Part shown: piece by piece, positions 17,017 to 62,318 of the stretch
Layout: each line of letters opens with the position of its first letter
How positions within the stretch are numbered: the stretch's first letter is position 1
From: Cytophagales bacterium
GTDB taxonomy: Bacteria; Bacteroidota; Bacteroidia; Cytophagales; JAAEPT01
Reading direction: 5' to 3'
DNA: 64,000 nucleotides
Assembly: GCA_965224495.1 (NCBI GenBank)
Contig: CBDCZI010000025.1
Span: 243,495 to 307,494 of the forward strand
Made by a program: the position numbers and the translations under genes
Notes under the pieces: generated by a model
The model's database searches: none
What the model saw: the letters and a program-made list of their open reading frames with translations, nothing else
What the model was told of the DNA's origin: nothing

Positions 17017-17179
17017 TTGGAGCATCCCCTCTGTGATGAAATGATTTTTCGGTGTAGGTTAGTAAAAGAAGCGATAGAAATGAAAATAACCGATAAAAAT
17101 AACGGAGGGTCGGGCTTACGGCTATATCTTTTTAGGGCAGAAAAAGCCCTAAAAAGGATACCGCCTTTATCCCTATGCC
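17017..17179 (+). repeat. Dispersed structured intergenic element, copy A (candidate ncRNA or MITE-like repeat)
   Basis: Shares blocks TTGGAGCATCCCC / GGGTCGGGCTT / ATCTTT..AAAGGAT hairpin / ATCCCTATGCC with copies at 25131-25368(-), 37655-37826(-), 45648-45803(+) and 52881-53041(+). Confidence 0.8.
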
Positions 17180-25490: not shown

Positions 25491-28400
25491 ATGAATAAGT
25501 ATAAATTAATATTGGCAGGAATTCTATTTTTTGTAATAGGTGGGTCAGCTACTTTTGGGCAAAGTTGTTCAGACGCAACACCTGTTCAGGCAGTGTTTAA
25601 TGGTGACTTTGAAAAGGGTTATTTGACCTCCGCTTCTTCACAGTATTCGGATGGAGCTGCTCGTGGTTTTAAATCAGATTTATTACCTGTCACAGATTTT
25701 ACCGGTGCAAACTGTGTTTATGGTTTTGGTGGGAAATATGGTATAGCTAAAAATTTAGGAGCTACGGGTGCTTGTGGTGCCGATTTCCCTTATATTGGAG
25801 CGGGTTACCCAGGAGCGATGGTTTTTGAAGATCATACACCAACTGAAGGAGGTGATGGGTTTGCTTTACTTGTCGATTTTATAGCGGCGGCGAATAGTTC
25901 TTCTGTATATACGGGAGGATTACCTGTGGCGTGGTTGCAAGAAGTGACAATATTCCCTAGTGAAACTTATTATTTTTCGGCTTGGTTTGGGAATTATACA
26001 ACGACACCAGGTACACCTGAATTGTATTTTGTCGTTACGCCTATTGATGCAGCAAATAATTTGGTGATAGCTGAACGTACGGTTGTAGGTACAGCTCAAC
26101 CCACAGGTGTAATGCAGTGGCAACAGTTTTCTGGTGAATGGAACCCTACAGGTGTTTATACTAAAGCTCAAATTTCGATAGAAGTAGATTTTACTTTGAC
26201 AGCACCAGCAAGTGGAGCGGATTTTGCGTTTGATGATATTTCTTTTAAAAATGGTTGTGATGACTTATTAGCAGGTGGAGATTTTGATCCTGATTTAGGA
26301 ACTGATTTTTCTTTGTGTAACACAGGGGGGACTTCTACTTTGGATTTTGGAGGAGCATCAAATGCTTTCCAACAAATTAGATGGTATGAGGTAACAGGAA
26401 CGGGAACAGATAATTTGATAGCGGCAGCGAATGATACGAAAACATTGCCGGTTTCTATTAGCGGTACGAACTCGACAGGTAAATACCGTGTTTGTATTCA
26501 AGAAGCAGGTAAATGTGCAAGAAATAGTATAGTAGAAGTAAAAGATGATTTGGCAGCATTGTCTATTGCCGATATTGAACTGTGTACAAACCCAACGGAA
26601 ACGGTGGATTGTACAGTCGATTTTGTTTCACCAATCAATTCTATTACTTGGAAAAAGGATGGTACAACAGAAGCAACAGATGTAAGAACATTGACAATTT
26701 CTTCGCCAGGTAATTATTCCGTTGATATTGTAGGAGACGGAAATTGTGATGCAAGTGAGACATTTACAGTAACTTCTTTGATTCCTATTGCTGATGAAGA
26801 TCCGTTTAGTCTTTGTGCGGGTAAAACAATGGATTTGACGGTTACAGACCCAACAGCAGGAGGTAATATAGATTGGTACACAACAGCGACAGGGGGCGTG
26901 CCTGTATTAACGAGTGCAACTTTGTTGTCTTATTCAGCAGGGACATTGCCTTTTACTTATTATGTAGAGAATGCAGCGCAGGATAATTATACAGCAGGTT
27001 ATGCAACTACAGGACCAACTTTTTCAAATAGTGATCCGCAAAGACGTGTTGACTTTGTCTCAGATATTCCATTGGTAATTAATTCAGTACAAATAAAACC
27101 GACAGTGTCTTCGGGTATTTGTTGGTCACCTGGTGGAACACAAAATTATACGATTGGCTTGTATTTAGGAACTGGAGCGGGAGCAACAGCAACAGGGCAA
27201 ACAGTAACGCAAGCAATCAATTGTACGGGAGGAATACAAACAGTTGCCTTAGGGTTTAATGTACCCGCAGGTAATTACCAATTAAGACTAGAGAAAGGAG
27301 CGGGGTTAGGTGCAGGGACTGACCAACATTACATACCAACAGCAACGATAGTGTCTCTTCCTGGTGTGATAACAATTAATAAATCTAATGATCCACTTTA
27401 TGGAGGACCATTTTTTAATTGGGATATCGGTGTGCCAAAAGGTTGTGCACGTATTCCTGTAAATGTGATTGAAAAATTAACAGGTTGTTGTCCCGTTTTT
27501 GATGGTGTAGCAATTAATGAAGCAAGTGTGACAACTTGTTCGGTAGGAGGAACAGAAACATTTACAGCAAACAAGGTCGGTGCGAATTTAGCAGTTAATT
27601 TATATGAATTTCGATGGCTAAATGGAGCTACTGAAGTGAAAACATGGACAGCAGGGAGTGCTGGGCTATCTTTAACAAATGCAGAACTTATAGCAGGTGG
27701 TGCAGGGACTTATACTGTAGAATTGAGAATAATAGGAAATGTAACCTGTACGGCAGTTTCGTCAGGTGTAACCTTAACAGTCAACACGACCCCAACCACT
27801 CCAGTCCTAGCAGGAACACAAGCTTACTGTGCGGGAGACAATATTTCTCTTAATGTAACAGCAGGAACAGTAACAACAGGAGCAACTTACGCGTGGGAAA
27901 AAGATGTGGCGGCAATAGCGGGAACAACAGCAACTTACACAAAAGCAAGTTCAGTAACAACAGACGCGGGTAGCTATACAGTAACAGCAACAAAAGATGG
28001 TTGTTCGAGTGCGGAGAGTGCGAGTTATGCATTAACGGTAAATGAAGTACCAGCCAAACCAACGATAACAGCTAACCCAACAGCCACTTCTATTTGTACA
28101 GGAGACGCGGTAACGTTAACAAGTGCATCGGTAACAACGGGAGTGACTTATGTATGGACAAAAGGAACAGCAAGTGGAACAAACGATAAGGATATCGTAA
28201 TAGCATCTGCGGTAACGGGAGACGGCGGAACTTATACCACAACGGCTACAAAGACAGAAAACGGAAAAGCATGTATATCACCAGCAAGTGATAACTTTGT
28301 TTTAACAGTCAACACGACCCCAGTTACCCCAATACTAGCAGGAACACAAGCTTACTGTGCGGGAGAGAGTTTATCAATAAACGTAACGCCAGGCACAGCA

Positions 28401-31400
28401 ACAACAGGAGCAACTTACGCGTGGAAAAAAGATGCGGCAGCAATAGCGGGAACAACAGCAACTTACACAAAAGCAAGTTCAGTAACAACAGACGCGGGTA
28501 GCTATACAGTAACAGCAACAAATGCAGGTTGTTCGAGTGCGGAGAGTGCGGGTTATGCGGTAACGGTAGATGAGGCAGTAACTATTGCTGCTATTACACC
28601 AGCAGCAGTATGTTTTCCAGGAACAGTAGATATTACAACAGGAGCAGTAACTCCAGGGACAGCAACAGTAACTTACCATGTAGGAGCAGGAGGAACAGGA
28701 GCAATTCAGCCGACAGCCACAGCAGTAACAGGCACAGCAGTTTACTCAGTAAAAGCAGTGAATGGACAATGTAACACAACTTCAGACGTTAACGTAACAG
28801 TAACCCCCTTACCATTAGCCCCAACAGTAGCACCCTTATCTTACTGTAAAGACGCAACAGGAGCGGCAGTCTTAACAGCAACAGGAGCAGGATTAACCTG
28901 GTACACGGCAGCGACAAGCGGAACGGCAACAGCACCAACCCCATCAACAGCAATCGTAACGACATTCGATTATTATGTTAGTCAGACAGTCACAAGTTGT
29001 GAAGGACCAAGAGCAAACTTACAGGTAACGATAAACGCTTTACCAACGGTAAGCGCGACAAGTGATGATGCGGATAATAAGATTTGTTTAGGAGACAATG
29101 TAACCTTAACAGGAGGCGGAGCAGACACTTATGTTTGGGATAACTCAGTAACAGATAGGACAGCGTTTACGCCAACGGGAACGGTGAACTACACGGTAAC
29201 AGGAACAAACACAGCAACAACTTGTACAAACACAGCAAGTGTTCAAGTAGAAGTAAATGCTTTACCAACAGTAACGGCAACAGTAACAGGAAGCCCCGCA
29301 TGTTTAGGAGCAAATGTAACACTGACAGGAGGTGGAGCAAGTACATATACTTGGGATAACGGAGTAGCTAACGCAACAGCCTTTGCGACCACAGCAGTAG
29401 GAACAACAACCTACGAGGTCGAAGGAACAGACGCAAACGGATGTAAAAAGAAAGCCACGGTAGATGTGGTAGTAAACGCTTTACCAACAGCAGTATTAAC
29501 AGGAACAGCAAGTATCTGTAACAAAGCAGGAGTAACAACAGACTTAAACATTGCATTAACAGGAGCGCAACCTTGGGAAGTAGTTTACAACAACCCGATA
29601 ACAGGAAACCAAACGATTAACCCAACAAGTTCACCCGCTACAGTAGCAGTAAATAACGCAGGAGATTACACTTTAGTCAGTGTGAAAGATGCCAATAACT
29701 GTACAGCCACAAGTGCAACAGGCACAGCAACGATAGACTATTTAGACGAAGTAATTGCAACCTACGAAACAAAATGTTCAGGAGATGAAGTAGGAACTTT
29801 AGTATTAGGAGGGACAGATTTTCAAATTGTATTGACGGTAACACAAGGGGATTTGTCATCAATTACGGCTACAGAAACTACGGTTCACGGAGTGACATTC
29901 ACACGAGAAGGAACAACGAATCAGTGGGTTTCAGGAGCGATAGATGAATCAAACACAGTAGTAGCAGATATCAAAGATGGTAATGATTGTAATACACTTA
30001 CCCGTTCAGGTATGAATACAAGATGTTCATGTCCAGCAACAGGAACAACGGTAATAGGGACTGGTGGATTACTCACTGAAACGATTTGTAACGATGCGGG
30101 AGTAGAATCAACGGTAACGGTAACTTACAATGGAGGATCAAGTGATTACAGAATTACACTAGACCAACCAACGAGTGCGGATGTAATAAAAGACAATGAA
30201 ACAGGAACAACGACTTTTGCTGTAAGTGAAGCAGGAACCTATAACGTAGAAATTTATAGCAACGGTAACGCCTGTCCTGTCAATGGAGGAAGTGTAACAC
30301 TTGCTCATCACACGACGCCCGTAGCACAATTAACAGCAACAAGTGCAACAACAGTTTGTGCAGGAGACAATGTGACTTTGGAAGTGAAATTAACCGCAGG
30401 AGATGCACCATTTACCTTTAACTTAGATAACACGACACCAGTAAGTAGTGTAGCAAAAACAGGAGCAACAACAACCTTTACAGAAGCTATAAGTACAACA
30501 GGAGATTACAGTATCACCAATGTAAAAGACAACAACGGTTGTATAGGAACAGCAAGTGGAGCGGTAACGATTGCAAACCATGCGAACACAGCAGCAACAG
30601 CAATAACTAAATGTGACACCCCATTAGGCGGAGTAACCTTAGCAGCAGATGAATTTCAAATCGTAGTAACAGCAACAGCAGGAACATTTACAAGTGACCC
30701 AATTACAGAAACTACAGCTCACGGTGTGACTTTCTCACGAGTAGGGTTAACAGACGTTTGGTATTCAGGAGCAATAAACGAGGCAAACGCAGTAGATTTA
30801 GACTTTGCAGATGACAACGGGTGTAACACCGTAGATTTAGATGGCTTACAAAAAAGATGCTCATGTCCAGCAGAGATAGATGATTTTACTATTGACAAGA
30901 CAGAGATTTGTGCAAGTCCCTCACAAACAGCAACGCTAACAGTAACTTATTCAGGAGGAGATGCAACAGATACGTACACGCTTTCATTAACAGGAGCAGA
31001 AACACAGAGTAATGCAGGAGCAGCAGGAAGTACAAGCACCACCTTTACAGTAAGTACACCAGGAACTTATAATGTAGCAATAACAAACATTACGCAAGGG
31101 AACTGTGTGATTAACGGAACAACACAAAAGGTTTTAGCTCATTACACTACACCAAAAGCAGAGATAACAGGAGATGCAAGTATTTGTGATGATGCACCAA
31201 CAGTAACGACACCATTGACAATTACCTTAACAGATGGAGTAGCACCATTTACTTTAGACGTATCCAACGGAGTTGGAGCAATTACAGGAGCAACCACCGC
31301 ACACACAGAAAACGTTTCAGCAAGTGGAAGTTATACGTTAAGTAATTTAGTAGATAACAACGGGTGTGAAGGAACCGTAAGTGGAAGTGCAACAATCACT

Positions 31401-34400
31401 CACTTAGCAAAAGTAGCAGCAACGCCAACAACACGTTGTGATGATGAAAGCCCATTAGGAAGCATCAGCTTAACTGACTCAGAATACCAAATTGTCGTAA
31501 CAGCAACAGCTGGAGATATGGCTAGTTTGGTAATAACAGGGGCAACGTTCCAAGAAACAGCAGCAGGTTCGGGTATCTGGTATAGTGGAGCAATAGCCGA
31601 AACAGTAACTTCAGCCGTTCATGTAACGGATGTTAATGATTGTGAGGGAGGAATAGACCTTACAGGGATAACAAGAACATGTTCTTGCCAAGCCAAAGGA
31701 GTAACTACCCTGACAACAGGAACAATTTGTGCAGAAGGAAATACAACAATAGAGGTAGTAACCAGTGGGCTAACAGGGAACTATAACGTAACCTTGACCC
31801 AACCAGATGCAACGACACAAGTCGCTTCAAGTAAGCCTACAGGAACAGAAGTGTTTACAGTAAGCCAAGCAGGAGATTATACCGTAGTGGTACAAGATGC
31901 AACAGATGGTTGTGTTGCAAATGGAGGAACGGTAAGACTTGCTCATTACCCCGTACCAACAGCAACAATAGCAGGAGATGCAAGTATTTGTGCAGCAGGA
32001 ACAGTGTCAACAAGTACAGGATTAGCTGTTACATTAACCGCAGGGACAGCACCTTTTGCTATTGATTTATTAGGAGGAACAGCAACGGAAAACTTAACCA
32101 ACCTAACAAGTCCTCATACCCAAGGCGTGAGTACAGCAGGTGTTTATACGTTGACTAATTTAGTAGATGCTAACGGATGCCAAGGAACAATTGCACCAAC
32201 AGAGAAAGCAACAATCACCAACTTTGAGAAGGTGATTGCTTCAGGAAGTGCGGTATGTAATAGCACACCTTCATTAGTATTAGGAGGCGTTACATTATCA
32301 CCTACACAATACCAAGTAGTAGTAGAAGTAACGCAAGGAGATTTGGCTTCAACGGTAGTCACTAAATTAGTGGGGGGAGTGTCATTGACAAGACTTCCTT
32401 TAACAAACAAGTGGTACAGTGGAGCGATAGACGAAACGACAGCCACAGATGTCCACGTAACAGACGGTAACAATTGTGAAGGAGGAATAGATATTACAGG
32501 ACTACAAAACCAATGTTCTTGTCCTATTGCAGCAACAGCTACTTTATTACCAGGGAGTATTTGTGATGATGGAACTTCAACAGCGACCTTAACAGTAAAT
32601 GTAACCAGTAGTAATACGACCGATATGACAGATTACACGATAGCGGTAACAGGAGCAGAAACGGTTGGTTCGACAGAAACGCCAGATGCTTCAGGAGCAG
32701 TGGTAAATAAAACTTACAATGTAAATACAAACGGAGCTTATGCCATTAAGGTAACAAGTAACGGACAAAATGGAGCTTGTGTTGTATCAGCAGGAGGGCA
32801 AAACTTAACGGTAAATGCTTTACCAACAGCAAGTATCACAACAACAGGTACAGCGTTGGAATACTGTCAAGGAGAAACACCAATAACCTTAACGGCAACA
32901 CAAGTGATTGGAGCAACAAGTTACGAATGGTTCAAAGGTGGAGTTACACAAGGAACAACCTTAACCAACAGCAAAACAAATGCAACAGCAGATGCAGCAT
33001 GGACGGTGAAAGTAACCGACGCAAATGGTTGTGATCAAACGTCAAATCCAGTAGCGGTAATAGAAAATGCTTTACCAATAGCAAGTATAACGACAACAGG
33101 AACAGCATTGGCGTACTGTAAAGACGGAGCAGGAGTTGTATTAAGAGCGACAAACGTACCAAATGCAACTACCTACGAATGGTTCAAAGAAACAACTTCA
33201 GTAACAATAGGAGCAGGAGATACAAAGACAGGAGCGTTAGCAGGAAGTTGGACAGTAAAAGTAATTGATGATAACACTTGTACAGCAACTTCAACGGCAG
33301 TAAGCGTTATTGAAAACCCATTACCAACACCAAGTATTACGACAAGTGGAACGGACTTAGCATACTGTAAAAATGCAACAGGAGTAACACTAGCAGCAAC
33401 AGGCGGAGTAGATTACGCATGGATAAAAGACAACGGAACACCAACAGCTTACTCGACAACAGCCACAACAAGTGATGCGAAGTTTGGTAACTGGCAAGTA
33501 AAAGTAAAAGACGCTAAAGGGTGTGAAGCAACTTCATTAGCAGTAACCGTAACAGAAAACACCCTACCAACGGCTACCTTGACAAGCGCAACAAACCCTG
33601 TGATTTATTGTGCAGGAACAAGCGCACCAATAATTACGGTGGCGATTACAGGAAATGGACCATTTACTTATGACTATACAGGAGGGGCAAACGGAACAGG
33701 GCAAAGTACAGGAACAATAACAACAAGTAACACGGACAACGCAGCGACCACTTACCAACTCACGAAGGTAACAGATGCTAACAACTGTGAAGGGACAAGC
33801 TTTGGAGCAAGTGTTGTGGTGACACAAGAAGAAGTGCCAGGCGTACCAACACTGAGATCGGACGCAGAAACAACGGTATGTGAAGCAACTGTATTTAATA
33901 TTACAGCAACTTCGGTAGCAGTAGGAACGCCAACGATTATTTGGGAACAAGGAGGGACAGGAACAGAAGCGAGCCCATCGATTGTAGTAGGTAATACGGC
34001 AGGAAGCGTAACGATTTACCAAGCCAAAGCAAAAATTGGAAACTGTCCATCGGAAAGTTCTTTACCCTTAGTAGTTACAGTAAAAGAAAGTGCAACAGTA
34101 AGTTTAACGGTAAATAAAACAACAGTTTGTGAGGAAGAAAAGGTGGTATTTACAGCCTCATCAACCCACGCGGACCCAGGGGTAACTTACGACTGGTATT
34201 TGAATATAGAGGTCGCAGGGATAAACACAGAGATAAAGACAGTGACAACGATAAACCCAACTTATGAAGTGAAATTAACAGACAGTGACGTTTTATACAG
34301 TGTGAAGATAGCCAACAACAGTTCTTGTGTAGGAGCAGAGGTAAGTTCTAATTTACAAGCGGTAGCAGTAACGAAGTTACCAAAACCAACATTGAATAGC

Positions 34401-35162
34401 TTAAGTGAGAGCTTATGTGGTACAGATGGAGGTTTTGACTTGGTGGCAAGGGATGAAAACGGAGTGATTTATACGAGTGGAATAGATTGGCGCGATGGAA
34501 ATGACGATAAATTATTAGAAACAAGTGGGAGCTACCATGTAACTAAAACAGGGACTTACGCAGTGTATGTCACTAAAAACGGATGTCGTTCAAAAATACA
34601 CTCAGGAAGAACGGTAGCACAAGTGGTTGTTCAGGAATTGAGTTTAGACTTTAGTCCATCAGAGACCCAAGACATCGAAGAAGATGAAGAGGTGGTGTTA
34701 GAGGCAATTGTAGGAGGAGGAATAGGCGTATTAGAATACGCTTGGACTCGAACAGAGACAGGGAATGTGACCGGTAGTTCATCAAGTTATGTTTACCCAG
34801 CAAGCAAGACAGAAAACGTATCGGTAGTGGTAACTGATACGCAGACCAACTGTACGGTAAGTAGTGGGGTGACGGAGATAAATGTATTGAAATCATTTAA
34901 AGTACCCAATGCGTTTACACCAAACGGAGATGGATTTAATGATACGTGGAACATTGAAGGGTTAGAAACTTATAGAAACTCGGTGATGAATGTTTATAAC
35001 CGTTGGGGACAATTGGTTTACAGTAACCACGGGTCATACACAGAGGCATGGGACGGAAGAAGAAATGGTAAAGACTTACCTATCGGAACGTACTATTATG
35101 TGATTACCCTAAACCAAGACGGCAAAGAAAACGTGAGTGGTGATGTAACTATCGTGAGGTAA
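25491..35162 (+). CDS. Giant repeat-rich cell-surface protein with T9SS type-B C-terminal sorting domain (SprB-like adhesin class)
   Basis: 3223 aa with a signal peptide. Dozens of Thr/Ala/Gly-rich Ig-like modules carry conserved Cys pairs. The last about 88 aa match the gliding-motility-associated CTD ([15 protein letters not shown]...YNRWGQLVY...WDGR...[10 protein letters not shown]). Confidence 0.9.
29476..32815 (+). repeat. Four tandem macro-repeats of about 275 aa (822-834 nt) inside the giant gene
   Basis: A CSC(P/Q) landmark recurs at 30024, 30858, 31680 and 32514. Each unit has three sub-domains (..ASIC..PF.., [27 protein letters not shown], and ..TVTY.GG..Y..L...G.Y.V....C..NGG...LAH). 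Confidence 0.85.
34896..35159 (+). other. T9SS type-B C-terminal sorting domain of the giant protein
   Basis: [72 protein letters not shown]. Confidence 0.9.
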
Positions 35163-35163
35163 T

Positions 35164-36168
35164 ATGCAAATGAACTATAGCCCTTTTAGCCAAAAGTACA
35201 GGTATGGATTCCAAGGGCAGGAGAAAGATGATGAAATAAAAGGGGAAGGAAACTCTATCAATTATAAGTACCGTATGCATGATGCTAGAATTGGTAGGTT
35301 CTTATCATTAGACCCACTGGCACCAAGTTACCCACATAACTCACCTTATGCTTTTAGTGAGAATAGGGTGATTGATGGGGTTGAACTAGAAGGGTTAGAA
35401 GTTGATTTGACTAGTGGTAAAGAGTGGGCTTATGTGTTGGATGGTCTAGGTACTTTATTCAGTTGGGATCATTTTAAGGGGGAGGCTAGTGTCCCAGTGA
35501 TAGCTGTAAAAAATAAAGATTTTGTTTATGATAACACGATTAGTGTTGGAGCACTTACATGGGGACGGTCAACAACATTTAATTATAGAGGGGATACACA
35601 AGCTGAAGAAACATATGATCATGTTGGTATTACATTTGATCTTTTTAACAGTAATCCTGCAACTACGGTGGCTGATGTTGCTTTAGGTTCGTTGAATCAT
35701 ACATTTTCACTTGGAGTAGTTAATAATTTAGATCCTGATGGGGATGGTGAAAATGACTATTCAGGTTTCTTTATTGGAATAGGTGCTTCTTATGATGGTG
35801 TTGGGGCTAATCACAGTGGATGGAGAACGAAAGGAAAGTGGGTGAGTTCAACATGTATAACTTTAAGTGTAAAAGATTTGCTTTTGTCTATGGCAACAGG
35901 AGGAAATGCTAATGTATCCATTAACTTTGATTTTTTCATTGACCCAAATAGCTCAGATTCAGCACTTGAACAATTCCTTAAAGCGAATGATGATTTTTGG
36001 AATTCAGTAGGGGAATCAGGAGTAGAAGTTACAGATTCTATGAGAAAACAATTAGAGGCAGCAACGAGTATTATGAAAGAATCTATTATTAATGGAGATA
36101 GTTATGATACATACTCAGATAAATATGAAAAACAGGAGACCCCTGATGTTCAAAATACTGGTTTATAA
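35164..36168 (+). CDS. Orphan Rhs-repeat-associated-core fragment fused to an unrecognised C-terminal (putative toxin) domain
   Basis: The N-terminal 80 aa match the Bacteroidota Rhs core terminus ([19 protein letters not shown]...[43 protein letters not shown]). There is no signal peptide and no YD-repeat shell. The ATG lies 1 nt after the giant-gene stop. Confidence 0.75.
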
Positions 36169-36204
36169 GTCATTTGTGGTGTTGGTGTACAAAAACAATA
36201 AAAG

Positions 36205-36801
36205 ATGAATTACTCAATTTGGAATAGAAGGGTGCTGTTGTTAATAATTCTATTTTTAATAGTTGGTTTCCTTTTCCATATTATATACCCTAGCACAGTA
36301 ATGTTAATAGTTCCATCGAAGATTTTGGCAATTGAAGGTTTATTAACTCTAGTTATTACGGGAATAATTGAATTGCTATTTTATTTTAGGGATAAATCTA
36401 ATTATATCATTAAATGGGCTAAGATGATTATATTTTTCCCCTTATTATTAGTTAGTTCTGGGTATTGCCTAAAAGGTTATTTTGAAATTTTAGCATCTAA
36501 TATGATGACCTACAATCTTGTAAATGTACAGCTGATAATAGAGGATAAACAAAAAAAATCAATACATGGAGAGACATATTCTCTAATCTGTTATGTACCA
36601 GTCTACAGTAGAAAAATTAAAGTACCTATTGAAAACAAGTTTTATAGAGATATTGAAAAAGGTGATTTATTGGAACTAAATCTTCGTCATAACGACTTAG
36701 GCTTAGTTTTTTCTGATTATTTTCACCTTATAACAGAGGTAACGCCTCATAAGGTGAAATCTAAACCATCCTCATTACTGAATGAAAACACACGTGACTA
36801 G
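36205..36801 (+). CDS. Polytopic membrane protein, candidate cognate immunity protein
   Basis: 198 aa with 3-4 N-terminal TM helices plus a small soluble C-terminal domain. Visibly more AT-rich than flanking genes. Sits immediately downstream of the toxin ORF. Confidence 0.55.
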   Translation: MNYSIWNRRVLLLIILFLIVGFLFHIIYPSTVMLIVPSKILAIEGLLTLVITGIIELLFYFRDKSNYIIKWAKMIIFFPLLLVSSGYCLKGYFEILASNMMTYNLVNVQLIIEDKQKKSIHGETYSLICYVPVYSRKIKVPIENKFYRDIEKGDLLELNLRHNDLGLVFSDYFHLITEVTPHKVKSKPSSLLNENTRD

Positions 36802-36995
36802 CATTTGCAATGCGAAATGTTAGGAATCTTTCCATCAACCTTTCCTACGTTTCGAAAGCTCAAAAATGATATGAAAAAGATAGCCTTGCATCGAAAGTGA
36901 TGTGAGGCTATTCTTGTTTTGTGGTGATTTTGGGTGATAGGTTTGATGGTCTTTGCGGAGGTTTTACATGTTTTATTGGACCCTGGGACCAATAC

Positions 36996-37151
36996 CTAAA
37001 CCTTCTGAATTCTGTTCTTTCTGTTCAATCTATTGACTACAGCTTCCATTTCTTCTGGCATTTCAAATTTGTCTTTATGATATATGTTAATTAGAAATTC
37101 TGATAAGTGTTCACTGAACTCACCAATGACTTTCAAGAAATCAATAGGCTC
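36996..37151 (-). pseudogene. 3' fragment of an unknown gene truncated at repeat X
   Basis: Only the C-terminal about 50 aa (..EPIDFLKVIGEFSEHLSEFLINIYHKDKFEMPEEMEAVVNRLNRKNRIQKV*) look protein-like. The upstream part of track ORF 36996..37274 is a translation of repeat X. Confidence 0.35.
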
Positions 37152-45860: not shown

Positions 45861-47105
45861 TTAATGCGTGTGTTCCGTTTCTTCTTTGGTCATTTCTGCT
45901 AATAAATAATAAGCAGAGCTTGTTGCAAATACCGTTTCTTTAGCCATTTTTTTAAGAAATTTTATTTCCACAAAGCCCTTCTCTTTTTGCCCAAGAATCA
46001 CCTCTGTTTTAGTGAAAGTTGATTTACGTTGTTCTTCGTGACCATGACCATGATGGTGGTCATCGTGTGCGTGCGTACCGTGGTTGCTAACCTGCTTTTT
46101 AACAAACACATACGTACGGTTTTTATCAGTTACAACAGCCTCTTCAGGCAATACTGTTGTACTGTCTGTCTGTCCGACCACGATTTTTCCTTTCACGTAC
46201 ATCCCCGAGAGCAAATGCATTTTTTCAGCGTGAATATGTGCGTGGATATGTACAGCACGAGGATTGTTTTCAAAAGCAGGGCTAATAGCAAACACTTCTC
46301 CTTCCATTTTTTTGCCATTATTACTCACCTCAAAAATAATTTTTTGTCCGACTTTCACCTTAGCAATGTCCTTTTCGTAAACCTTTAAAGCGACGTGCAA
46401 ATCATCGTTATTTACCACCTCAAACAACTTGTTTTGTGGCTGAACAAACGCACCAATATTTGTTTGTACCAAACTCACCACGCCTTTTATAGGAGATTTA
46501 ATATAAATAGACGGATAGATTTTACCTTGTTCTACTCTACTCGGACTCAAGCCTAACATACGCAATTTTGCTTTTAGCCCTTCGACATTTGCTAACGTTG
46601 CACGGTAATTGGCAGTTACTTTTTGTAGATTCTTACCCGAACCCACTTTTTCTTTGTAAAGTATTTCTTGGCGTTTTTTCTCTTTTTGCAAATAAATCAA
46701 TTCATTCAAATGGCTCAAATAATCTTGTTGCATTTGTACAATTTCGGGATGCTCCAAATGTGCTAATATTTGCCCTTTCGCAACCTTAGAACCTTCAATG
46801 ACACGTACTTTTTTTATCACTCCACCAACCAAAGACGAAACGTCTGCTTTGTCGTTGGGAGGCAATTCAAGTTCTCCATTAGCATAAACAAATGTGGCTA
46901 AAGGTTTACGTAAAATGAGACCTGTTTTTAGCTTGATTAGTTTTTGTTGTTGGATAGTCAAAACAACTTCCGTTGTACTGTGTTCTGCATGTTCATCGTG
47001 TCCATGTTCATTATGACCGTGTCCCTCGTGTCCTGTTTCTTGTTTTTTTCCGCAAGAGATTGCCAACAAGAGGATACACAAATAAATAATGTTTCTATTT
47101 TTCAT
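45861..47105 (-). CDS. RND efflux periplasmic adaptor (CzcB/CusB-like) with His-rich tracts
   Basis: Lipoprotein-like signal (LLLAISC) and a membrane-fusion-protein fold. His-rich segments GHEGHGHNEHGHDEHAEH and HGTHAHDDHHHGHGHEE. Confidence 0.85.
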   Translation of the reverse strand: MKNRNIIYLCILLLAISCGKKQETGHEGHGHNEHGHDEHAEHSTTEVVLTIQQQKLIKLKTGLILRKPLATFVYANGELELPPNDKADVSSLVGGVIKKVRVIEGSKVAKGQILAHLEHPEIVQMQQDYLSHLNELIYLQKEKKRQEILYKEKVGSGKNLQKVTANYRATLANVEGLKAKLRMLGLSPSRVEQGKIYPSIYIKSPIKGVVSLVQTNIGAFVQPQNKLFEVVNNDDLHVALKVYEKDIAKVKVGQKIIFEVSNNGKKMEGEVFAISPAFENNPRAVHIHAHIHAEKMHLLSGMYVKGKIVVGQTDSTTVLPEEAVVTDKNRTYVFVKKQVSNHGTHAHDDHHHGHGHEEQRKSTFTKTEVILGQKEKGFVEIKFLKKMAKETVFATSSAYYLLAEMTKEETEHTH

Positions 47106-47129: not shown

Positions 47130-50100
47130 CTATTTTCCTAACAAATAATCTATCTCAACCACCGATTGGTTGTATTGATTAAGTGTTTTTAAATAATTAA
47201 ATTTTATAGCCAATGCTACGTCGATACTTTGCACGTATTCAATGTAATTAATCGCCTCGTAAGCGAAACTCTTTTGTGCATTACCTAAGATTAAATTAGC
47301 TTGAGAAATACCTTTTGTTTCGTAATAAGCAATACCTAATTTCAATTTGTGGTGCGTTTGAATCAGGTGTTTGTATTTGCCCAATAACTGTGTTTTGTAA
47401 TAATTAGCCTGTGTTTCAGCTTTCATTTTGTCTAAGCCCGATGCCTTTACTTTTGCCGAATTTCCTTTAAACCAAATAGGAATAGCGACACCAAATTGTA
47501 CACCTTGAAACCTTTTTTTTCCTTCAAAATAAGTCGGTGTATTGTCCACATCTTGCCAGCCGACCATTGATTGATTAAAATAACCGACACGGAAATCGGG
47601 TAAATTACTAGCCTTTAATACCGCTTTTTTTTGCTCTGCCAATGTTGATTGATGCATATAATAACTCAATAAAGGATTTGAGGAGATGGCATTTGTATCA
47701 AGAACAAAAACACGTTTTTGAAGCTTTTCGTGTGTCGCATCAACCAAATAATCGACATTTAACAAGGTCTTTAATTGCGTTTGATAAATAGAAATATCGG
47801 CTAGGTTTTGTTCCTTTTCCATTTCGATTTGCATCACCTGAGCTTCGGCATTTACAAACTCTAAATAGCTTGTTTCCTCGGTTTCGTAACGGATTTTTGT
47901 AGCGTGGGCAAACTGTTGGTAAATACTATCTTGAAAAATCAACAACTGCTGACGTTGGTGTAAATAAGCCAAATGCAACCAAACGGCTTTCACTTCTTTT
48001 TTAAGTTCGTTGCCCGTAATCGCCTTTTGCAATTCGCTAGTTACAATTTGCCCTTTTGCTAATTGTACTTGCTTCTTATAAAGAGAAGGAAATTGAAATT
48101 TCTGGTTAATTTCAAAACCAAAATCATTGTTGATACTATTTATTTGTCCGTAATTAAAATCAAAATTGGTCTTTTTAATAGAGATAGCCGATGATTTTAA
48201 GGTTTTCTGTCTTTCAATTTCCAAATCAGCTAATTGCATACTGCCGTTTTTAGACAAAGCAATTTCAACAGCCTTCTCTATTGGTAAAAGGGTCGTTTGT
48301 GCTTTAATAGGTGCGGTAAACACACAGAAAACCACCAAGAGAGCAAGTAGGTGAGGTGAAAGTTTTATTTTATTCATCGTTTTATTTTCTATCATAGCAT
48401 ACAACACAGGCAAGACCACCAAAGTTAATAAAGAAGAAGTTAAAAGACCACCAATAACCACGGTAGCTAAAGGACGTTGTACTTCTGCACCAGCCGAAAC
48501 TGATATAGCCATTGGTAAAAAACCTAAAACATCGGTGGTGGCCGTCAAAAATATTGGTCGGATACGTTCTTTAGCACCTTTCAAAATCCGTTCTTTTAAG
48601 GTCATATTTTCTCCTTGTGTCGTTTTCAAATCATTAAAACTTGCGATTAAAACCAAGCCATTGAGTACAGCAACACCAAACAACACAATAAAACCAACAC
48701 CTGCCGAAATACTAAACGGCATACCCATCACCCACAACGAAAACACACCACCAACCGCAGAAAGAGGGATGGCAATGTAAATAATCATTGTTTGCCAAAA
48801 AGATTTGAGGGCAAGGTAAAGCAAAACAAAAATCAAAAACAACACCAAGGGTACAACGATTAATAAACGGTCTTTTGCTCTTTGCAAATTTTCAAATGTA
48901 CCGCCATATTTAATGTAATAACCCGTTGGTAAATCAAGTTCTGCATCTATTTTTGTTTGTACTTCTTCCACAAAAGACTGTATATCTCGCCCTCGGACAT
49001 TTACACCGACATAAATTCGTCGGTTGGTGTTTTCACGAGAGACTTGCATCAAACCAGGTTGAAAATCTATTTTTGCTACTTCTCGCAAAGGAATATGCGA
49101 GCCATCAGCCAAAGGAATGAAGATATTTTCTAAATCTGTAATGCCTTTACGGTGTGTTTCTTTTAAGCGAATAACCAAGTCAAACCGTTTTTCGCCTTCA
49201 AAAACGACACCTGCGGTCTCTCCAGCAAACGCCATTTTGATGATACTATTAAGTTCTTCAATAGACAGACCATATTGTGCCATTCGGTCACGCTGAAAAC
49301 GCACAGACATTTGCGGTAACCCTTGTGTTGCTTCTACCTTCAAATCGCCAACTCCTTCGACTGTTTGCACGATAGAAGCGATTTGTTGTGATTTTTCGGT
49401 CAATATAGCTAAACTTTCGCCATACAATTTGATAGCCACATCTTGGCGAACACCTGTCAGTAATTCATTAAATCGCATTTGAACAGGTTGTGTAAATTCA
49501 AAATTTATACCAGGTAAAACAGCCAACTCTTTTTTGAATTTTTTGACTAACTCTTCTTTTGAAGAAGCAGAAACCCACTCTTTTTTAGGTTTCAGTAAAA
49601 CAAACATATCCGCAACATCCATCGGCATCGGGTCGATAGGTATTTCAGAAACACCGATACGAGCAACCACTTCTTTCACCTCGGGAAACTTAGCTAACAA
49701 TATTTCTTCTATGTAATTGGTCGATTGTATCGCTTCATCGAGCGAACTACCAGGTTTTAATAAAGCGTGTAAAGCAAGGTCTCCTTCATCAAGATTGGGC
49801 ATAAACTCACCACCCATTCTGCTAAATAGGAAAATAGCTACCGCCATAAAAGCAACTGAAAGTCCTAAAACTAACTTTGTTTTTGTCAATACCCACGACA
49901 ATAATTTCACGTAGTTGTTCTCTAACCAAACAATAAAACGGTCGCCGAAAGTTAATTTTTTCTTTGCTTTTTTATTCATAAACAAAGCCGAAACCATAGG
50001 TACGTAAGTCAAGCACAAAATCATTGCACCCATTACCGCAAAACTAAAAGTCATCGCCATTGGTTTAAACATTTTACCTTCAACACCCGTCAAAGTCAAA

Positions 50101-51479
50101 ATGGGGAGAAACACAATCAGAATAATTAATTGACCAAAAAAGGCGGAATTCATCATCTTACTCGATGAATTGTAGGTGATATTGTCTAATTCGTCATTGG
50201 TCAACGGTTGCTCTTTTTGGCGAACAAACTGCATTGTGTAAAAAGCGACACTCTCGACTATTATCACTGCTCCATCGACAATAATACCGAAATCTATCGC
50301 TCCCAAACTCATTAGGTTTGACCAAACGCCAAACAAATTCATCATAATATAAGCAAACAATAAAGACAAGGGAATGGTAGAAGCAACGATAAGCCCTCCT
50401 CTAAAATTACCCAAAAACAAAACCAAAACAAGCACGACAATCAAACCTCCTTCCAAAAGGTTAGTCGAAACAGTAGAAGTAGTACGGTCAATTAAATCTG
50501 AACGGTCAAGGAAAGGTTCGATAGAGATACCCTTAGGCAACGATTTCTCGATTTCCACGACTCTCTTTTTAATTAAATCAATCACTTCATTAGAGTTTGC
50601 ACCCTTCAGCATCAATACCATTCCACCGACGGCTTCACCTTTACCATCTTTGGTAAATGCCCCATAACGAATGGCTTTCCCAAAAGAAACACGAGCAATA
50701 TCACGCACCAAAATCGGTGTTTTATTCACCGTTTTCACGACTATTTGCTCAATATCACCCAACGAATGAATCAGCCCTTCGCCACGAATAAAGTTTGCTT
50801 GATGATTTTTAACAATATAAGCACCTCCTGTATTTCCGTTGTTTTGCTCTAAAGCAGAAAACACATCCGAGATTGTTATTCCCATACTTTTTAAATGATT
50901 GGGGTCGATAGCGACTTCATATTGTTTAATATTACCACCAAAACTATTGACCTCTATCACGCCCTGCACCATTGCCATTTGACGTTTCACTATCCAATCT
51001 TGGTGCGTACGTAACTCGGTCAAACTGTAATTATAGCCTTCAGCCACTTTCAAACTGTATTGGTAAACTTCGCCCAAACCAGTCGCTATTGGCCCCATAA
51101 ATGGTTTGCCAAACTGCTTTGGTATATTGATTTCGTTGAGCTTTTCGGCGATTAATTGACGAGGTAAAAACGTGCCTTTATCGTCTTCAAAAACAATAGT
51201 AACCACCGATAACCCAAAGCGAGAAATCGAACGGATTTCTGTGACACCAGGTAAATTAGCCATCGCCAATTCGACAGGGTAAGTAACAAACTGTTCAATA
51301 TCCTCCGTTCCCAAATTGGGAGAAGTGGTAATCACTTGTACCTGATTGTTGGTAATGTCAGGCACGGCATCAACAGGAACTTTATTCATCGAATAAATCC
51401 CAAAAGCAATCCAAACAAGCAAGAGCAAACCAATGAGTAACTTGTTCTTAATAGAAAAAGAAATAATTTTATTTATCAT
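47130..51479 (-). CDS. CzcA/CusA-family heavy-metal RND pump fused in frame to a TolC/CzcC-like outer-membrane factor
   Basis: The first about 1034 codons are a 12-TM HME-RND protein (MINKIISFSIKNK...). With no stop codon they continue into MNKIKLSPHLLALLVVFCVFTAPIKAQ plus about 390 aa of TolC-like repeats. The ATG at 51479 is preferred over the track TTG at 51491. Confidence 0.85.
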   Translation of the reverse strand: MINKIISFSIKNKLLIGLLLLVWIAFGIYSMNKVPVDAVPDITNNQVQVITTSPNLGTEDIEQFVTYPVELAMANLPGVTEIRSISRFGLSVVTIVFEDDKGTFLPRQLIAEKLNEINIPKQFGKPFMGPIATGLGEVYQYSLKVAEGYNYSLTELRTHQDWIVKRQMAMVQGVIEVNSFGGNIKQYEVAIDPNHLKSMGITISDVFSALEQNNGNTGGAYIVKNHQANFIRGEGLIHSLGDIEQIVVKTVNKTPILVRDIARVSFGKAIRYGAFTKDGKGEAVGGMVLMLKGANSNEVIDLIKKRVVEIEKSLPKGISIEPFLDRSDLIDRTTSTVSTNLLEGGLIVVLVLVLFLGNFRGGLIVASTIPLSLLFAYIMMNLFGVWSNLMSLGAIDFGIIVDGAVIIVESVAFYTMQFVRQKEQPLTNDELDNITYNSSSKMMNSAFFGQLIILIVFLPILTLTGVEGKMFKPMAMTFSFAVMGAMILCLTYVPMVSALFMNKKAKKKLTFGDRFIVWLENNYVKLLSWVLTKTKLVLGLSVAFMAVAIFLFSRMGGEFMPNLDEGDLALHALLKPGSSLDEAIQSTNYIEEILLAKFPEVKEVVARIGVSEIPIDPMPMDVADMFVLLKPKKEWVSASSKEELVKKFKKELAVLPGINFEFTQPVQMRFNELLTGVRQDVAIKLYGESLAILTEKSQQIASIVQTVEGVGDLKVEATQGLPQMSVRFQRDRMAQYGLSIEELNSIIKMAFAGETAGVVFEGEKRFDLVIRLKETHRKGITDLENIFIPLADGSHIPLREVAKIDFQPGLMQVSRENTNRRIYVGVNVRGRDIQSFVEEVQTKIDAELDLPTGYYIKYGGTFENLQRAKDRLLIVVPLVLFLIFVLLYLALKSFWQTMIIYIAIPLSAVGGVFSLWVMGMPFSISAGVGFIVLFGVAVLNGLVLIASFNDLKTTQGENMTLKERILKGAKERIRPIFLTATTDVLGFLPMAISVSAGAEVQRPLATVVIGGLLTSSLLTLVVLPVLYAMIENKTMNKIKLSPHLLALLVVFCVFTAPIKAQTTLLPIEKAVEIALSKNGSMQLADLEIERQKTLKSSAISIKKTNFDFNYGQINSINNDFGFEINQKFQFPSLYKKQVQLAKGQIVTSELQKAITGNELKKEVKAVWLHLAYLHQRQQLLIFQDSIYQQFAHATKIRYETEETSYLEFVNAEAQVMQIEMEKEQNLADISIYQTQLKTLLNVDYLVDATHEKLQKRVFVLDTNAISSNPLLSYYMHQSTLAEQKKAVLKASNLPDFRVGYFNQSMVGWQDVDNTPTYFEGKKRFQGVQFGVAIPIWFKGNSAKVKASGLDKMKAETQANYYKTQLLGKYKHLIQTHHKLKLGIAYYETKGISQANLILGNAQKSFAYEAINYIEYVQSIDVALAIKFNYLKTLNQYNQSVVEIDYLLGK

Positions 51480-51542
51480 ACAAAAAGACAATAAGAAATG
51501 TGCGGTAACAACACGTTACCGATAAAATAAGCCAACGAAAAA

Positions 51543-58979: not shown

Positions 58980-59080
58980 TTTACTTTTTACGTAAAGCCA
59001 CTTACTGTTTAGTTTGAAAAGTGAAGGTAAGTTACTATTTTGTGTGTCAACTCTTTCTTTTTTACTGTTGAGTGTGTTTT

Positions 59081-60124
59081 ATGAAATTAAAAAATAGTCT
59101 TTTTATCGTTTTTTTGAGTTTGTTGAGTAGTGTCTCACTTGCTCAGCAAGACCCTCATTTTAGCCATTTTATGTTTAACTCGGTGTATTACAACCCAGGT
59201 TATACAGCTATTGAAGGAGTGAGTCGTGCAACATTAATTCATCGCTCACAATGGCTGGGGTACAAATCTTCAAATGAAGCAGACGGAAGAGGTGCGCCAA
59301 CGACACAGGGATTGACGGTGACCTATCCAATAAAGATGTTTGGTTCTACTGTCTTTAATAGTGGGGCGGGTTTGTCTATTGTAAATGATAAATTAGGGCC
59401 TTTGAGAAATTTTGAATTGAAAGGGTCTTTCGCTTATAATGTAAAACTTTCTACGGGAGGTATTTTAGGTGGAGGTTTAGGTGTAGGTTTTTGGCGTCAA
59501 AGTATAGATGGTTCGCTATTGAGAGCAGCAGATGATGATGATGTAGTTGTTGACGGGTTAGTCGGTCAAAAAAACGCACAGTTAAAACCAGATTTATCGT
59601 TAGGTGTTTGGTATAAGACAAAAAAATATGAAGGCGGTGTTTCTGTGCGTCATGCGATACCTAGCCGTTACAGTTATGGAATTGATAAAGACTCTATCTC
59701 ATCTAAGCTAATGCAACATTTATATATAACGGGACGTTATAATATCTATACTGGTTCTGATTTGCTCATATCACCAACAGCTATGATTTATACAGACTTC
59801 TCTGGTTTGTCGATTAATTATGGCGTATTGACTTCTTATCGAGACATGAAATATTGGGCAGGATTGACTCTACGTCAGTCAACAGCTAAGAAAGCGGGGG
59901 ATAGTAAGAACACAGTAAGTAATAATGATGTAGTTATTTTGATAGGAGCATCATTTTTGAAACAAAAAGAATTAAGAGTAGGGTATTCGTTGGATATTGT
60001 TACAAGTGGTGTGAAAGCCAAAAGAGGAACTTCGCATGAGATATTACTTTCTTATGTGTTACCTATAGGTAAAGACGATGAGAAACCGCCGTTGCGTTCT
60101 CCTCGTTACCGTCATGAAAATTAA
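59081..60124 (+). CDS. porP: T9SS membrane protein PorP/SprF family
   Basis: Signal peptide followed by QQDPHFSHFMFNSVYYNPGYT, the family hallmark, and a beta-barrel-like remainder. The ATG at 59081 is preferred over the track start at 59072. Confidence 0.85.
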   Translation: MKLKNSLFIVFLSLLSSVSLAQQDPHFSHFMFNSVYYNPGYTAIEGVSRATLIHRSQWLGYKSSNEADGRGAPTTQGLTVTYPIKMFGSTVFNSGAGLSIVNDKLGPLRNFELKGSFAYNVKLSTGGILGGGLGVGFWRQSIDGSLLRAADDDDVVVDGLVGQKNAQLKPDLSLGVWYKTKKYEGGVSVRHAIPSRYSYGIDKDSISSKLMQHLYITGRYNIYTGSDLLISPTAMIYTDFSGLSINYGVLTSYRDMKYWAGLTLRQSTAKKAGDSKNTVSNNDVVILIGASFLKQKELRVGYSLDIVTSGVKAKRGTSHEILLSYVLPIGKDDEKPPLRSPRYRHEN

Positions 60125-60381
60125 TTTTAGAGGAGAAAAGTTTGTCTATTGGGTTTGAGGATTGAAAATAGAGGAGATAGACAGCCTTTTAGAAAATAAA
60201 TTTTATATAAAGTTTTGTGAATACCAATTATTATTCGCATCTTGTAGTCTATTCTGAAATCGAATCTATTAAAAAGTTGTCTTTTGGATCGGATAACGTG
60301 GTCTTTTTTAGAGTAGTATTTAGTAAGAAAGAGTTCTCTTTCTCTTAATATTTGAGTTGTCATAAGGAAAAATTTAGTGTT

Positions 60382-61409
60382 ATGAATAGTATTAGTTTGA
60401 TTAAAAAGGCCTTTTGGCACTAGCTTTGGGTGCGACTGCATTCTTGACTAGTTGTGGAGGAGGTTACGAAGGTGGGGGTGACCTTGTAGGTGTGCCTGAC
60501 CGTGAAGGATGGGGACAAACATTGCCTTTTGGTATGGTTGTGTGTCCTTCTGGAACATTTCATATGGGGCAGGCGGATGAAAACGTACCTTCGTCTCAAA
60601 CAAACCCTAACCGTCAGATAACGATTGGTGGGTTTTACATGGATGATACGGAAATCACAAATAATGAGTACCGTCAATTCGTTAACGCTATTTTAGAAGA
60701 TTCTTTAGAAGTGTTAGGTGAGGAGTATATTATGACTGAACTTTATCCTGATACTACTGTTTGGGTTAGAGATTTTACGCACCACATGGGAGATCCTATG
60801 ATGGAGTACTATTATATGCACCCTGCGTTTGATGAATATCCAGTGGTTGGTGTAGATTGGTTTGCTGCAAAATATTTTTGTGAGTGGAGAACGGATTACA
60901 TGAATGAATGGAGAGCTGAAAACGGATTGTTTGCTATGCCTAGATTTAGACTTCCTTCGGAAGCTGAGTGGGAATATGCAGCAAGAGGTGGTCGTGATAT
61001 GGCTAAATACCCATGGGGTAATCCTTATATTAGAAATGCAAAAGGTTGTATGTTAGCTAACTTTAAGCCAGGACGTGGTAACTATTATGATGATGGTTTC
61101 ATGTACACTGCGCCAGTAGCTTCTTACTTTTCAAATGATTACGGTCTTTATGATATGGCGGGAAATGTGGCCGAATGGTGTGAAGATGCTTTTGAGGAAG
61201 CAGCAGTGCCTAAGGTTTGGGATTTGAATCCTACATACTATAAAGATGATGAGCCAAGAAAATTAATCAGAGGTGGTTCTTGGAAAGATATCGCTTACTA
61301 CTTGGAAACAGGTACAAGAACTTACGAATACCAAGATACAACGAAGTCGTTTGTAGGTTTCAGAAGTGTAATGATTTATTTAGGTCGTTCGTCAGGATAC
61401 GAATTCTAA
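60382..61409 (+). CDS. gldK: Gliding-motility/T9SS lipoprotein GldK (PorK), FGE-sulfatase fold; signal peptide split by an apparent 1-nt indel
   Basis: The FGE-like core (RLPSEAEWEYAARGG...YDMAGNVAEWC...RGGSW) follows the lipobox LTSCGG. The ATG at 60382 encodes MNSISLIKKAF, then runs into a stop. The main frame is open only from TTG 60414. Confidence 0.85.
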
Positions 61410-61462
61410 AATGTTTGTTTAGTAAATTTTAATAATTAGTATAACTTTTAAATTTAATTAAT

Positions 61463-62266: not shown

Positions 62267-62318
62267 TCCTTACATTGAAAATTAAATTATTGTTTTTAAA
62301 AATATAAACTATTGATAT

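Follow-up and report, generated by a model that had tools for sequence, protein, structure and literature searches.

A solitary Rhs-core reading frame behind a T9SS adhesin gene of a Cytophagales bacterium, probably part of an orphan toxin/immunity cassette

How does a short open reading frame (ORF) that begins with an Rhs-type core come to lie a single nucleotide (nt) behind the gene for a giant type IX secretion system (T9SS) surface protein, and what might it do there? The question is posed by a 64,000-nt stretch of DNA from a Cytophagales bacterium (assembly GCA_965224495.1, contig CBDCZI010000025.1, positions 243,495 to 307,494 of the forward strand), here termed the window, in which an ORF of 334 amino acids (aa; 35164..36168, + strand) with an ATG start and no internal stops follows a 3223-aa T9SS gene. 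A preliminary description, made from the letters alone, had given the size of this ORF and the 1-nt distance between its ATG and the stop codon of the giant gene, both of which are borne out by direct reading of the sequence. It had also put forward two explanations, namely an orphan cassette held in reserve for recombination into a distant full-length rhs gene, or a toxin expressed together with, and somehow delivered by, the T9SS adhesin. Our analysis favours the former. It seems fairly probable that the ORF and the gene behind it form a solitary orphan rhs-CT/immunity cassette, that is, the tip of one of the Sec-exported, Rhs-type giant polymorphic toxins that occur as a family across the Flavobacteriia, either displaced or acquired horizontally, together with its cognate immunity gene. 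The elements on which the argument turns are listed below.

25491..35162, + strand: giant ORF of 3223 aa, signal-like at its N-terminus and furnished with Ig-like repeats; aa 3137-3223 form a type B sorting domain for T9SS
35160..35166, + strand: junction TAA-T-ATG, in which the stop of the giant gene is separated by one nucleotide from the first codon of the cassette ORF, read directly (gtg agg taa t atg)
35164..35400, + strand: RHS-associated core, aa 1-79, with the boundary ELEGLE at the onset of the variable toxin
35401..36168, + strand: variable C-terminal toxin domain, aa 80-334 (255 aa), of a rare uncharacterised family
35958..37110, + strand: segment shared with a sister strain (99.9% identity to loci L085 and L086, blastn)
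36205..36801, + strand: putative immunity gene, 198 aa, with three transmembrane (TM)-like segments and a soluble C-terminal domain of ~100 aa (hydropathy)
36879..36912, + strand: terminator-like hairpin, a 15-pair stem followed by CTTGTTTTGT, the first after the giant gene (consensus scan)

Core, toxin domain and putative immunity gene

The cassette displays the features of an orphan module, comprising a 5'-truncated gene in which a retained core is followed by a variable C-terminus, and a small co-oriented gene downstream. The preliminary description had taken the N-terminus of the ORF for the last segment of an Rhs/YD shell; the Rhs homology stands, but the segment is the RHS-associated core and not a piece of the shell. 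The TIGR03696 (Rhs_assc_core) profile matches residues 11-77 of the ORF at profile positions 14-75 of 76 (E 4.9e-7); the score, 30.2 bits, falls short of the curated cut-off of 32.5, and since the same core in full-length relatives scores 33.9-39.7 bits, above the cut-off, the predicted core homology of the 334-aa ORF appears secure despite its sub-threshold score. The core of the window ends in ELEGLE, unlike that of enterobacterial orphan rhs genes; the canonical end of an Rhs core is DPxGL. Pfam returned no match to the 334-aa ORF, and neither RHS_repeat nor YD_repeat, and hence no YD-repeat shell, was found in it.

The start of the ORF is equally telling. In full-length genes the last YD repeat precedes the core, in the arrangement ...DV.SYSDYYPFGM..P.R.G....YRYGFQGQE, and the homology of short ORFs to these genes breaks just 5' of YYPFGM, the conserved Met of which is usually their first ATG. 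Residue M1 of the window ORF aligns without gaps to the YYPFGM Met of the last YD repeat, and the ORF therefore begins at the usual truncation point of the family. An alternative alignment, in which the core of the window carried a deletion of 11-13 aa relative to YYPFGM...YRY, was discarded in favour of the gap-free one. No hydrophobic segment was detected in the ORF (maximum KD19 1.14; mean of the first 30 aa -1.65), nor any N-terminal trafficking element, be it a signal peptide or a PAAR/VgrG-binding region. A Pfam scan covering 42 of the 45 ORFs of at least 110 aa (opposite-strand nested ones excluded) and the 92-aa ORF beside the cassette revealed no type VI secretion system (T6SS), PAAR, VgrG or Rhs gene among the scanned ORFs of the 64-kb window. 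The hydropathy and Pfam results agree in this respect with the preliminary description of an ORF that has no signal peptide, no shell and no T6SS, PAAR or VgrG context. The GC content falls stepwise from the giant gene (0.424) through the core (0.397) and the toxin domain (0.359) to the putative immunity gene (0.293), which is consistent with imported DNA.

The toxin domain is rare. Searched against 1.84 billion representatives, aa 80-334 gave five matches at E <= 1e-3: P0124, which is a 72-aa fragment of the window ORF from the sister strain; P0002 (47% identity), P0125 (34%) and P0126 (32%); and P0127, a weak and probably spurious match to a repeat. A further member of the toxin family, P0080 (39%), had come from the first search, and all the real members are short core-bearing ORFs. 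Profile searches of aa 80-334 against Pfam and PDB sequences yielded nothing significant. The AF2 models of the toxin are unreliable (pLDDT 32 and 41, with 3 and 5 sequences, respectively), and suggest a body of long β-hairpins followed by a helical tail; Foldseek found no match to the toxin model in the PDB with E <= 0.001, and TM-scores (query-length normalised) were at most 0.29. These negative searches are in line with the earlier remark that the domain carries no recognisable catalytic motif. As for its description as a Gly- and beta-rich domain of roughly 255 aa, the length is confirmed, but the enrichment in glycine is only moderate (9.8-11%).

The putative immunity gene begins 36 nt past the toxin ORF, in the same orientation. 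Its 198-aa product, with three TM-like segments, bears out the earlier identification of a membrane protein as the immunity candidate, and has no family match in Pfam or NCBIfam. Similar partners accompany other members of the toxin family, inasmuch as the genes 3' of P0002 and P0080, with products of 179 and 134 aa, respectively, encode three TM-like segments each and P0126 is followed by a 146-aa ORF; pairwise similarity among these downstream partners is not significant (E 0.35). Judging from its position and topology, the 198-aa protein may be regarded as the predicted cognate membrane immunity protein. Because the predicted immunity proteins are polytopic membrane proteins, the toxin would be envelope-directed, with an envelope or membrane target.

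Regarding expression, a consensus scan found no terminator-like hairpin between the giant gene and the cassette, nor in the final 470 nt of the former, a stretch in which no Bacteroidetes-type TAnnTTTG -7 motif is present either. Since no hairpin precedes the one at 36879 and no TAnnTTTG motif was seen, the three genes look like one transcription unit, giant-toxin-immunity, which likely ends at the 36879-36912 hairpin. At the TAA-T-ATG junction, translation is probably coupled by termination and reinitiation.

Some small repeats were noted around the end of the putative immunity gene. The near-palindrome GCATTTGCAATGCG occurs at its stop codon (36801) and again at 37190 and 37482, and a 58-nt direct repeat lies at 37182 and 37474 (81% identity), to which a 68-nt stretch of the opposite strand at 17107-17174 is related (87%). 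Remnants of PorP/SprF or of other cassettes were sought in the 1-kb gap past the putative immunity gene, which holds only small local repeats.

Giants, arrays and solitary relatives

A protein search with the 334-aa ORF returned 3,737 homologues at E <= 1e-3, a number that places the ORF far beyond chance; the figures that follow for these homologues rest on the best 120 of the 3,737. Apart from the self-match (3.7e-224), the 119 relatives listed extend from 3.6e-57 to about 4.5e-32 and are all 184-534 aa long. Most of them match locally over the first 70-80 residues (20-30% of the query) at 70-93% identity and leave the C-terminus unmatched. Identity is high across aa 1-79 and collapses past ELEGLE, and the annotated C-termini among the listed relatives vary, with lipase, peptidase M23, LysM, VanY, muramidase and others represented. 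A conserved pre-toxin segment combined with varied C-termini is the signature of a polymorphic toxin family, to which, by this comparison of sequences, the ORF would belong.

The organization of the family was analyzed in 78 loci of Flavobacteriales, Crocinitomicaceae and relatives that came from a one-genome-per-species scan and five loci fetched earlier (83 in all), plus the window. Searches by tblastn located 175 copies of the core in this set, which fall into three classes.

Long, 29 copies: the core ends an ORF and is preceded by 1,000 or more open codons
Intermediate, 32 copies: the core is preceded by at least 100 but fewer than 1,000 open codons
Short, 114 copies: the core is preceded by fewer than 100 open codons

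The products of complete long genes measure 2,400-3,600 aa. Among the full-length relatives, YD repeats were found in one and a weak DUF6443 match in some, and most start with classic Sec signal peptides, which argues that the long genes do not encode T6SS-type cargo. More than half of the short copies (59 of 114) have a same-strand core copy upstream and hence form arrays, several of which trail a giant (L003, L022, L029, L031 and L071); a giant with trailing short copies is the textbook layout of a parent gene plus orphans. Certain short copies, such as that of L046, have no start codon 5' of the core, and the short copies as a class therefore do not seem built for autonomous expression. About 28 short copies, besides that of the window, are solitary. 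These occur in many unrelated contexts, such as beside the genes for enolase, SOD, MurB or CoaX, and next to tyrosine recombinases in 3/24 cases.

The recombinases in question belong to the phage integrase family and are encoded directly 5' of the solitary cassettes, at distances of 2-876 nt (L017:7718-8599; L018:17469-18548, - strand; L045:13955-15034, - strand). Their vicinity suggests one route by which cassettes may be dispersed.

A divergent arrangement is found in L039:2502-15374, where the Rhs protein is split. A 2350-aa giant with a signal peptide, homologous end to end to the full-length proteins of the family, stops about 25 aa past the last YD repeat (HYYPYGM), without core or toxin, and 11 nt further on come four back-to-back paralogous core-toxin genes (465-508 aa), each encoding a signal peptide, a conserved N-domain of ~130 aa, the Rhs core and a distinct C-terminus. 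No immunity-like ORFs lie between these core-toxin genes.

The partial core-bearing ORF 5' of P0080 (L084:3-851) has a glycine-zipper-like C-terminus (AFAMGAASVLLAIPSGGTSLGILAIGTGATSMGLGG), consistent with membrane-active toxins circulating in these arrays.

As a classification, the orphan-cassette reading of the preliminary description is thus well founded: the ORF begins at the truncation point of the family, keeps the core and is followed by an immunity-like gene, and many of its equivalents are arrayed behind giants. In the model established for orphan Rhs and contact-dependent inhibition (CDI) modules, such pairs are maintained for the immunity they confer and, in addition, form a silent reserve able to recombine via the conserved core (PMC4524185, PMC4927057); core-mediated fusion of the orphan toxin has been shown for Salmonella orphan Rhs toxins. 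Applied to the window, this model would have a cassette with no recognisable promoter of its own co-transcribed with the T9SS adhesin gene, to which it would probably be translationally coupled. Because the ORF has no signal peptide, shell or C-terminal sorting domain, any toxin made would stay in the cytoplasm, where the membrane immunity protein would neutralise it or leave it without relevance. Local selection would act on immunity, directed against neighbours in which a full-length gene deploys this toxin, and the toxin part would constitute a reserve, deployable only once recombination through the core fuses it to such a gene.

The sister strain offers a view of the same module in another state. 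Its homology to the window stops inside the toxin gene, at about 35958, and the DNA 5' of there is unrelated, this position being a recombination or deletion breakpoint. The genes found 5' in L085 encode a coiled-coil protein with a signal peptide and a 143-aa membrane protein, both unrelated to those of the window. The toxin is thereby cut to a 72-codon stump and the 198-aa gene remains intact; an intact immunity gene beside a toxin stump is what the model of a module retained for immunity predicts. Locus L024 was also considered as carrier of the sister-strain copy, and was found to hold an unrelated lipase-like cassette.

T9SS neighbours and the explanations they invite

The upstream gene had been described as encoding a T9SS-secreted surface protein, an assignment that our results corroborate. 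Hydropathy reveals a hydrophobic signal-like segment at its N-terminus, its repeats match Ig_7 and Ig-like_POM152 in the Pfam scan, and its C-terminus is a type B C-terminal domain (CTD), matching CHU_C (Pfam, 90.2 bits) and TIGR04131 (76.5 bits). The last 600 aa gave CTD-level matches only in the protein database, at no more than 44% identity over 14% of the query, and no close orthologue. The giant protein has zero similarity to the Rhs-type giants of related loci, and a recombination between T9SS and Rhs giants via shared repeats was discarded on this ground. The possibility that a programmed +1 frameshift joins giant and toxin in one protein was also rejected, given that AGG-TAA-T and CGT-TAG-T are not slippery and that a fusion would bury the CTD internally. 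The giant gene is to be seen as context and as the probable source of transcription, outside the toxin module.

The CHU_C profile derived from the window was run over 1.11 Mb of DNA flanking the related loci. Two further type B CTD ORFs were detected, both directly 5' of a cassette and in the same orientation. In L013, a Flavobacteriales metagenome-assembled genome (MAG), a CHU_C gene (76.5 bits) is followed, through TAG-T-ATG, by a core ORF with a different toxin. In L079, from a Cyclobacteriaceae MAG, the CHU_C giant has 2802 aa and SprB repeats; PorP/SprF comes next and then, beyond a gap of 332 nt, a core ORF with a small ORF behind it. In addition, L060 harbors a SprB-repeat/PKD protein with a type A CTD (Por_Secre_tail) ~0.8 kb 5' of its cassette. 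The preliminary description had held that an adjacency unique to this genome, with an obvious full-length rhs donor elsewhere, would speak against a link with T9SS; its recurrence in L013, L079 and L060 shows that it is not unique. The junction of L013 lies 17 codons 5' of the FGM Met and that of the window at the FGM Met itself, and since the two differ in position relative to the core, their 1-nt spacers appear to have arisen independently. The other 24 upstream neighbours of solitary cassettes comprise the three tyrosine recombinases, ParE and Zeta toxins and housekeeping enzymes, and none of them is T9SS-related. When all CTD cargo is taken as background (1.7% of genes), the 3/27 cases observed give a non-significant P = 0.06; with type B alone as background (0.22%, a frequency derived from the very cases under test), 2/27 gives P = 0.0065. 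Junction-spanning IUPAC patterns (CTD 'WDG', a gap and core 'MHD..GRF..DP'), validated on the window and on L013, gave 0 matches in two scans of metagenome contigs, a weak negative given that this collection holds no positive control. A candidate junction in L059 turned out to be a chance match to a MORN-repeat protein. The association of cassettes with T9SS adhesins is accordingly suggestive, but not established.

The window also encodes part of the T9SS machinery itself.

59072-63035: T9SS core operon, with PorP/SprF (59072-60124), a GldK-like protein of the FGE-sulfatase fold (60414-61409), GldL (61463-62266) and GldM (from 62319)

The gldM-like ORF ends after 238 aa and the protein resumes in the +1 frame directly past an A6 run (GAAAAAACAG; 63020-63035), which may reflect either a genuine frameshift in this T9SS motor gene or a homopolymer sequencing error.

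A precedent for toxins in such neighbourhoods exists. TANFOR toxins, described by Jana, Salomon and Bosis in 2020, are restricted to Bacteroidetes and possess Sec signals but no CTD; their genes are enriched beside those of T9SS substrates with SprB repeats and a CTD, the toxin being encoded in some cases by a gene of its own downstream, and their export through T9SS has been hypothesised, though not shown (PMC7073777). The earlier statement that a T9SS route of antagonism had not been described thus needs to be qualified. No TANFOR match was obtained with NCBIfam for the 334-aa ORF, the giant or three full-length relatives, assuming that the TIGRFAM TANFOR model is contained in the release searched, and the conserved module of the family analyzed here is, unlike that of TANFOR toxins, the RHS-associated core.

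Several observations weigh against the orphan reading. There is no full-length rhs gene in the 64-kb window, and no near-identical core in a full-length rhs was found in the protein search, the closest among the listed matches being 93% identical and from another genus; on these two grounds, a resident recombination partner in this genome is unproven. Classic orphans directly trail their parent gene, whereas the cassette of the window trails an unrelated T9SS gene across a tight, coupling-like junction, and the independent recurrence of such a junction in L013 hints at selection for expression and not for silence. The 334-aa ORF is intact, so decay is not obvious in this strain. Finally, the split system of L039, where the core-toxins are encoded apart from the shell, shows that a core-toxin without a shell is not necessarily inert.

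Other explanations would have the toxin at work. It could be a functional effector, co-expressed with the type B CTD adhesin and reaching its targets via the adhesin or T9SS in a form of contact-dependent antagonism. Besides the independently arisen stop-T-ATG junction in L013 and the cassettes of L079 and L060 behind SprB-repeat CTD genes, this proposal can draw on the fact that all three type B CTD ORFs of the flanks and the window lie directly 5' of a co-oriented cassette (the P of about 0.0065 given above), on the TANFOR precedent, with its SprB/CTD neighbourhoods and separate downstream toxin genes, and on the presence of a T9SS core operon within the window. Nevertheless, T9SS export is a two-step route that needs both a Sec signal and a CTD (PMC7073777), and the 334-aa ORF has no Sec signal peptide and neither a type A (Por_Secre_tail) nor a type B (CHU_C/TIGR04131) CTD, so that its export by T9SS is topologically unsupported and the earlier idea of a toxin delivered by the adhesin is not upheld. 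The proposal is weakened further by the P of 0.06 on the all-CTD background and the circularity of the type B frequency, by the two metagenome scans without a match (and without a positive control), by the 24 upstream neighbours unrelated to T9SS, by the loss of the toxin in the sister strain and by the frameshift of the gldM-like gene as assembled. As is established for Sec translocation, moreover, a folded cytoplasmic protein cannot ride a Sec substrate. We thus consider a T9SS-linked effector very unlikely. A broader version of the same idea, in which SprB-like T9SS adhesin operons are preferred platforms for the expression or delivery of shell-less Rhs-core toxins, the adhesin providing contact and the toxin leaving by a non-canonical T9SS-linked route, strikes us as just as improbable; were it to hold, the independent stop-T-ATG coupling and the appended cassettes of L079 and L060 would mark a functional partnership.

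An autonomous toxin-immunity pair, acting or held in check inside its producer as an addiction or stabilisation module, or released by lysis or in vesicles, would need neither shell nor secretion system. Such a pair would agree with an ORF that is intact, possesses a start codon and is coupled to an upstream gene presumed to be expressed, with the immunity gene directly downstream, with the mobile-element-like company of some solitary cassettes (ParE and Zeta toxin genes, integrases) and with the core-toxins of L039 on polypeptides apart from the shell. However, the fact that the predicted immunity proteins are polytopic membrane proteins, and that the full-length relatives are secreted, points to a target that is extracytoplasmic or in the envelope and is approached from outside, many short copies (L046, for instance) have no start codon 5' of the core, and the sister strain has lost the toxin yet kept the immunity gene, which is the opposite of addiction logic; we regard this explanation as unlikely. 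The same locus L039, with its coreless shell giant and four separate core-toxin genes, might also be taken to imply that the short core-toxin docks into or onto an Rhs-type shell encoded elsewhere in the genome. The core-toxins of L039 possess a Sec signal and the N-domain of ~130 aa, but the window ORF has neither, which keeps it from any encounter with a shell that is periplasmic or exported; the scanned ORFs of the window include no shell gene either, and we attach hardly any probability to this scenario. The reading of the cassette as a solitary orphan, which would be maintained for immunity, remains the best explanation.

Known counterparts, surroundings and significance

The closest counterparts of the cassette are the enterobacterial orphan rhs-CT/rhsI modules (Salmonella Typhimurium, Serratia marcescens Db10 and E. 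coli), which likewise consist of a 5'-truncated gene with part of the core, a variable toxin and a cognate immunity gene, and which form arrays behind full-length genes, as do the relatives of the window cassette (PMC4524185, PMC4927057). In contrast to the enterobacterial case, the parents are here Flavobacteriia giants with Sec signal peptides and without any PAAR, VgrG or T6SS association, and the copy in the window stands alone, is preceded by a T9SS gene to which it is unrelated and has inherited its ATG from YYPFGM. Orphan cdiA-CT/cdiI modules are also displaced toxin/immunity pairs homologous to their parent and often found near integrases or transposases (PMC4927057), with integrases at 3/24 solitary cassettes as the equivalent in the present family, but they derive from a type V secretion system (T5SS) filament and not from an Rhs shell, and the two bear no sequence relationship. 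With respect to the gliding adhesins of Flavobacterium, in which SprB-type cargo with a type B CTD is paired with PorP/SprF, the giant of the window is such cargo and L079 represents a canonical giant-PorP/SprF pair with a cassette added. The window departs from this pattern in that no PorP/SprF follows its giant, the nearest one heading the gldKLM operon 24 kb away, and in that the cassette ORF has no T9SS feature.

The remaining neighbours in the window are housekeeping genes, which include an ilvA-type threonine dehydratase, DUF2851, ArsR, a CLC channel, an SF1 helicase, 2-oxoglutarate dehydrogenase genes and an RND pump. A single 1453-aa ORF (47130-51491, - strand) encodes a full RND transporter of the AcrB type at aa 9-1034 (ACR_tran) and, from aa 1072 to 1245 and beyond, outer-membrane-factor OEP domains, in an apparent fusion of RND pump and TolC-like protein, and is adjoined by a membrane-fusion protein gene at 45861-47105. 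In a separate part of the window (10379-10732), a gene for a 23S rRNA intervening-sequence protein, a bAvd-like four-helix bundle, is inserted between those of 2-oxoglutarate dehydrogenase E2 and dihydrolipoyl dehydrogenase.

As an orphan Rhs cassette, the module of the window is ordinary, one of thousands in flavobacteria. It adds a rare toxin/immunity family, with a toxin body that the models suggest to be β-rich and with 3-TM immunity proteins, to the very large and little-studied pool of polymorphic toxins in the Flavobacteriia, the full-length Rhs members of which are Sec-exported and for which we know of no route across the outer membrane. Its placement behind a SprB-type T9SS adhesin gene, as seen also in related loci, echoes what was observed for TANFOR toxins. 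Should a genome-wide survey uphold this placement, it would suggest either that T9SS takes part in antagonism between bacteria or that cassettes and adhesin genes reside together in hypervariable islands of surface proteins, and either outcome, if true, would help explain competition among marine flavobacteria.

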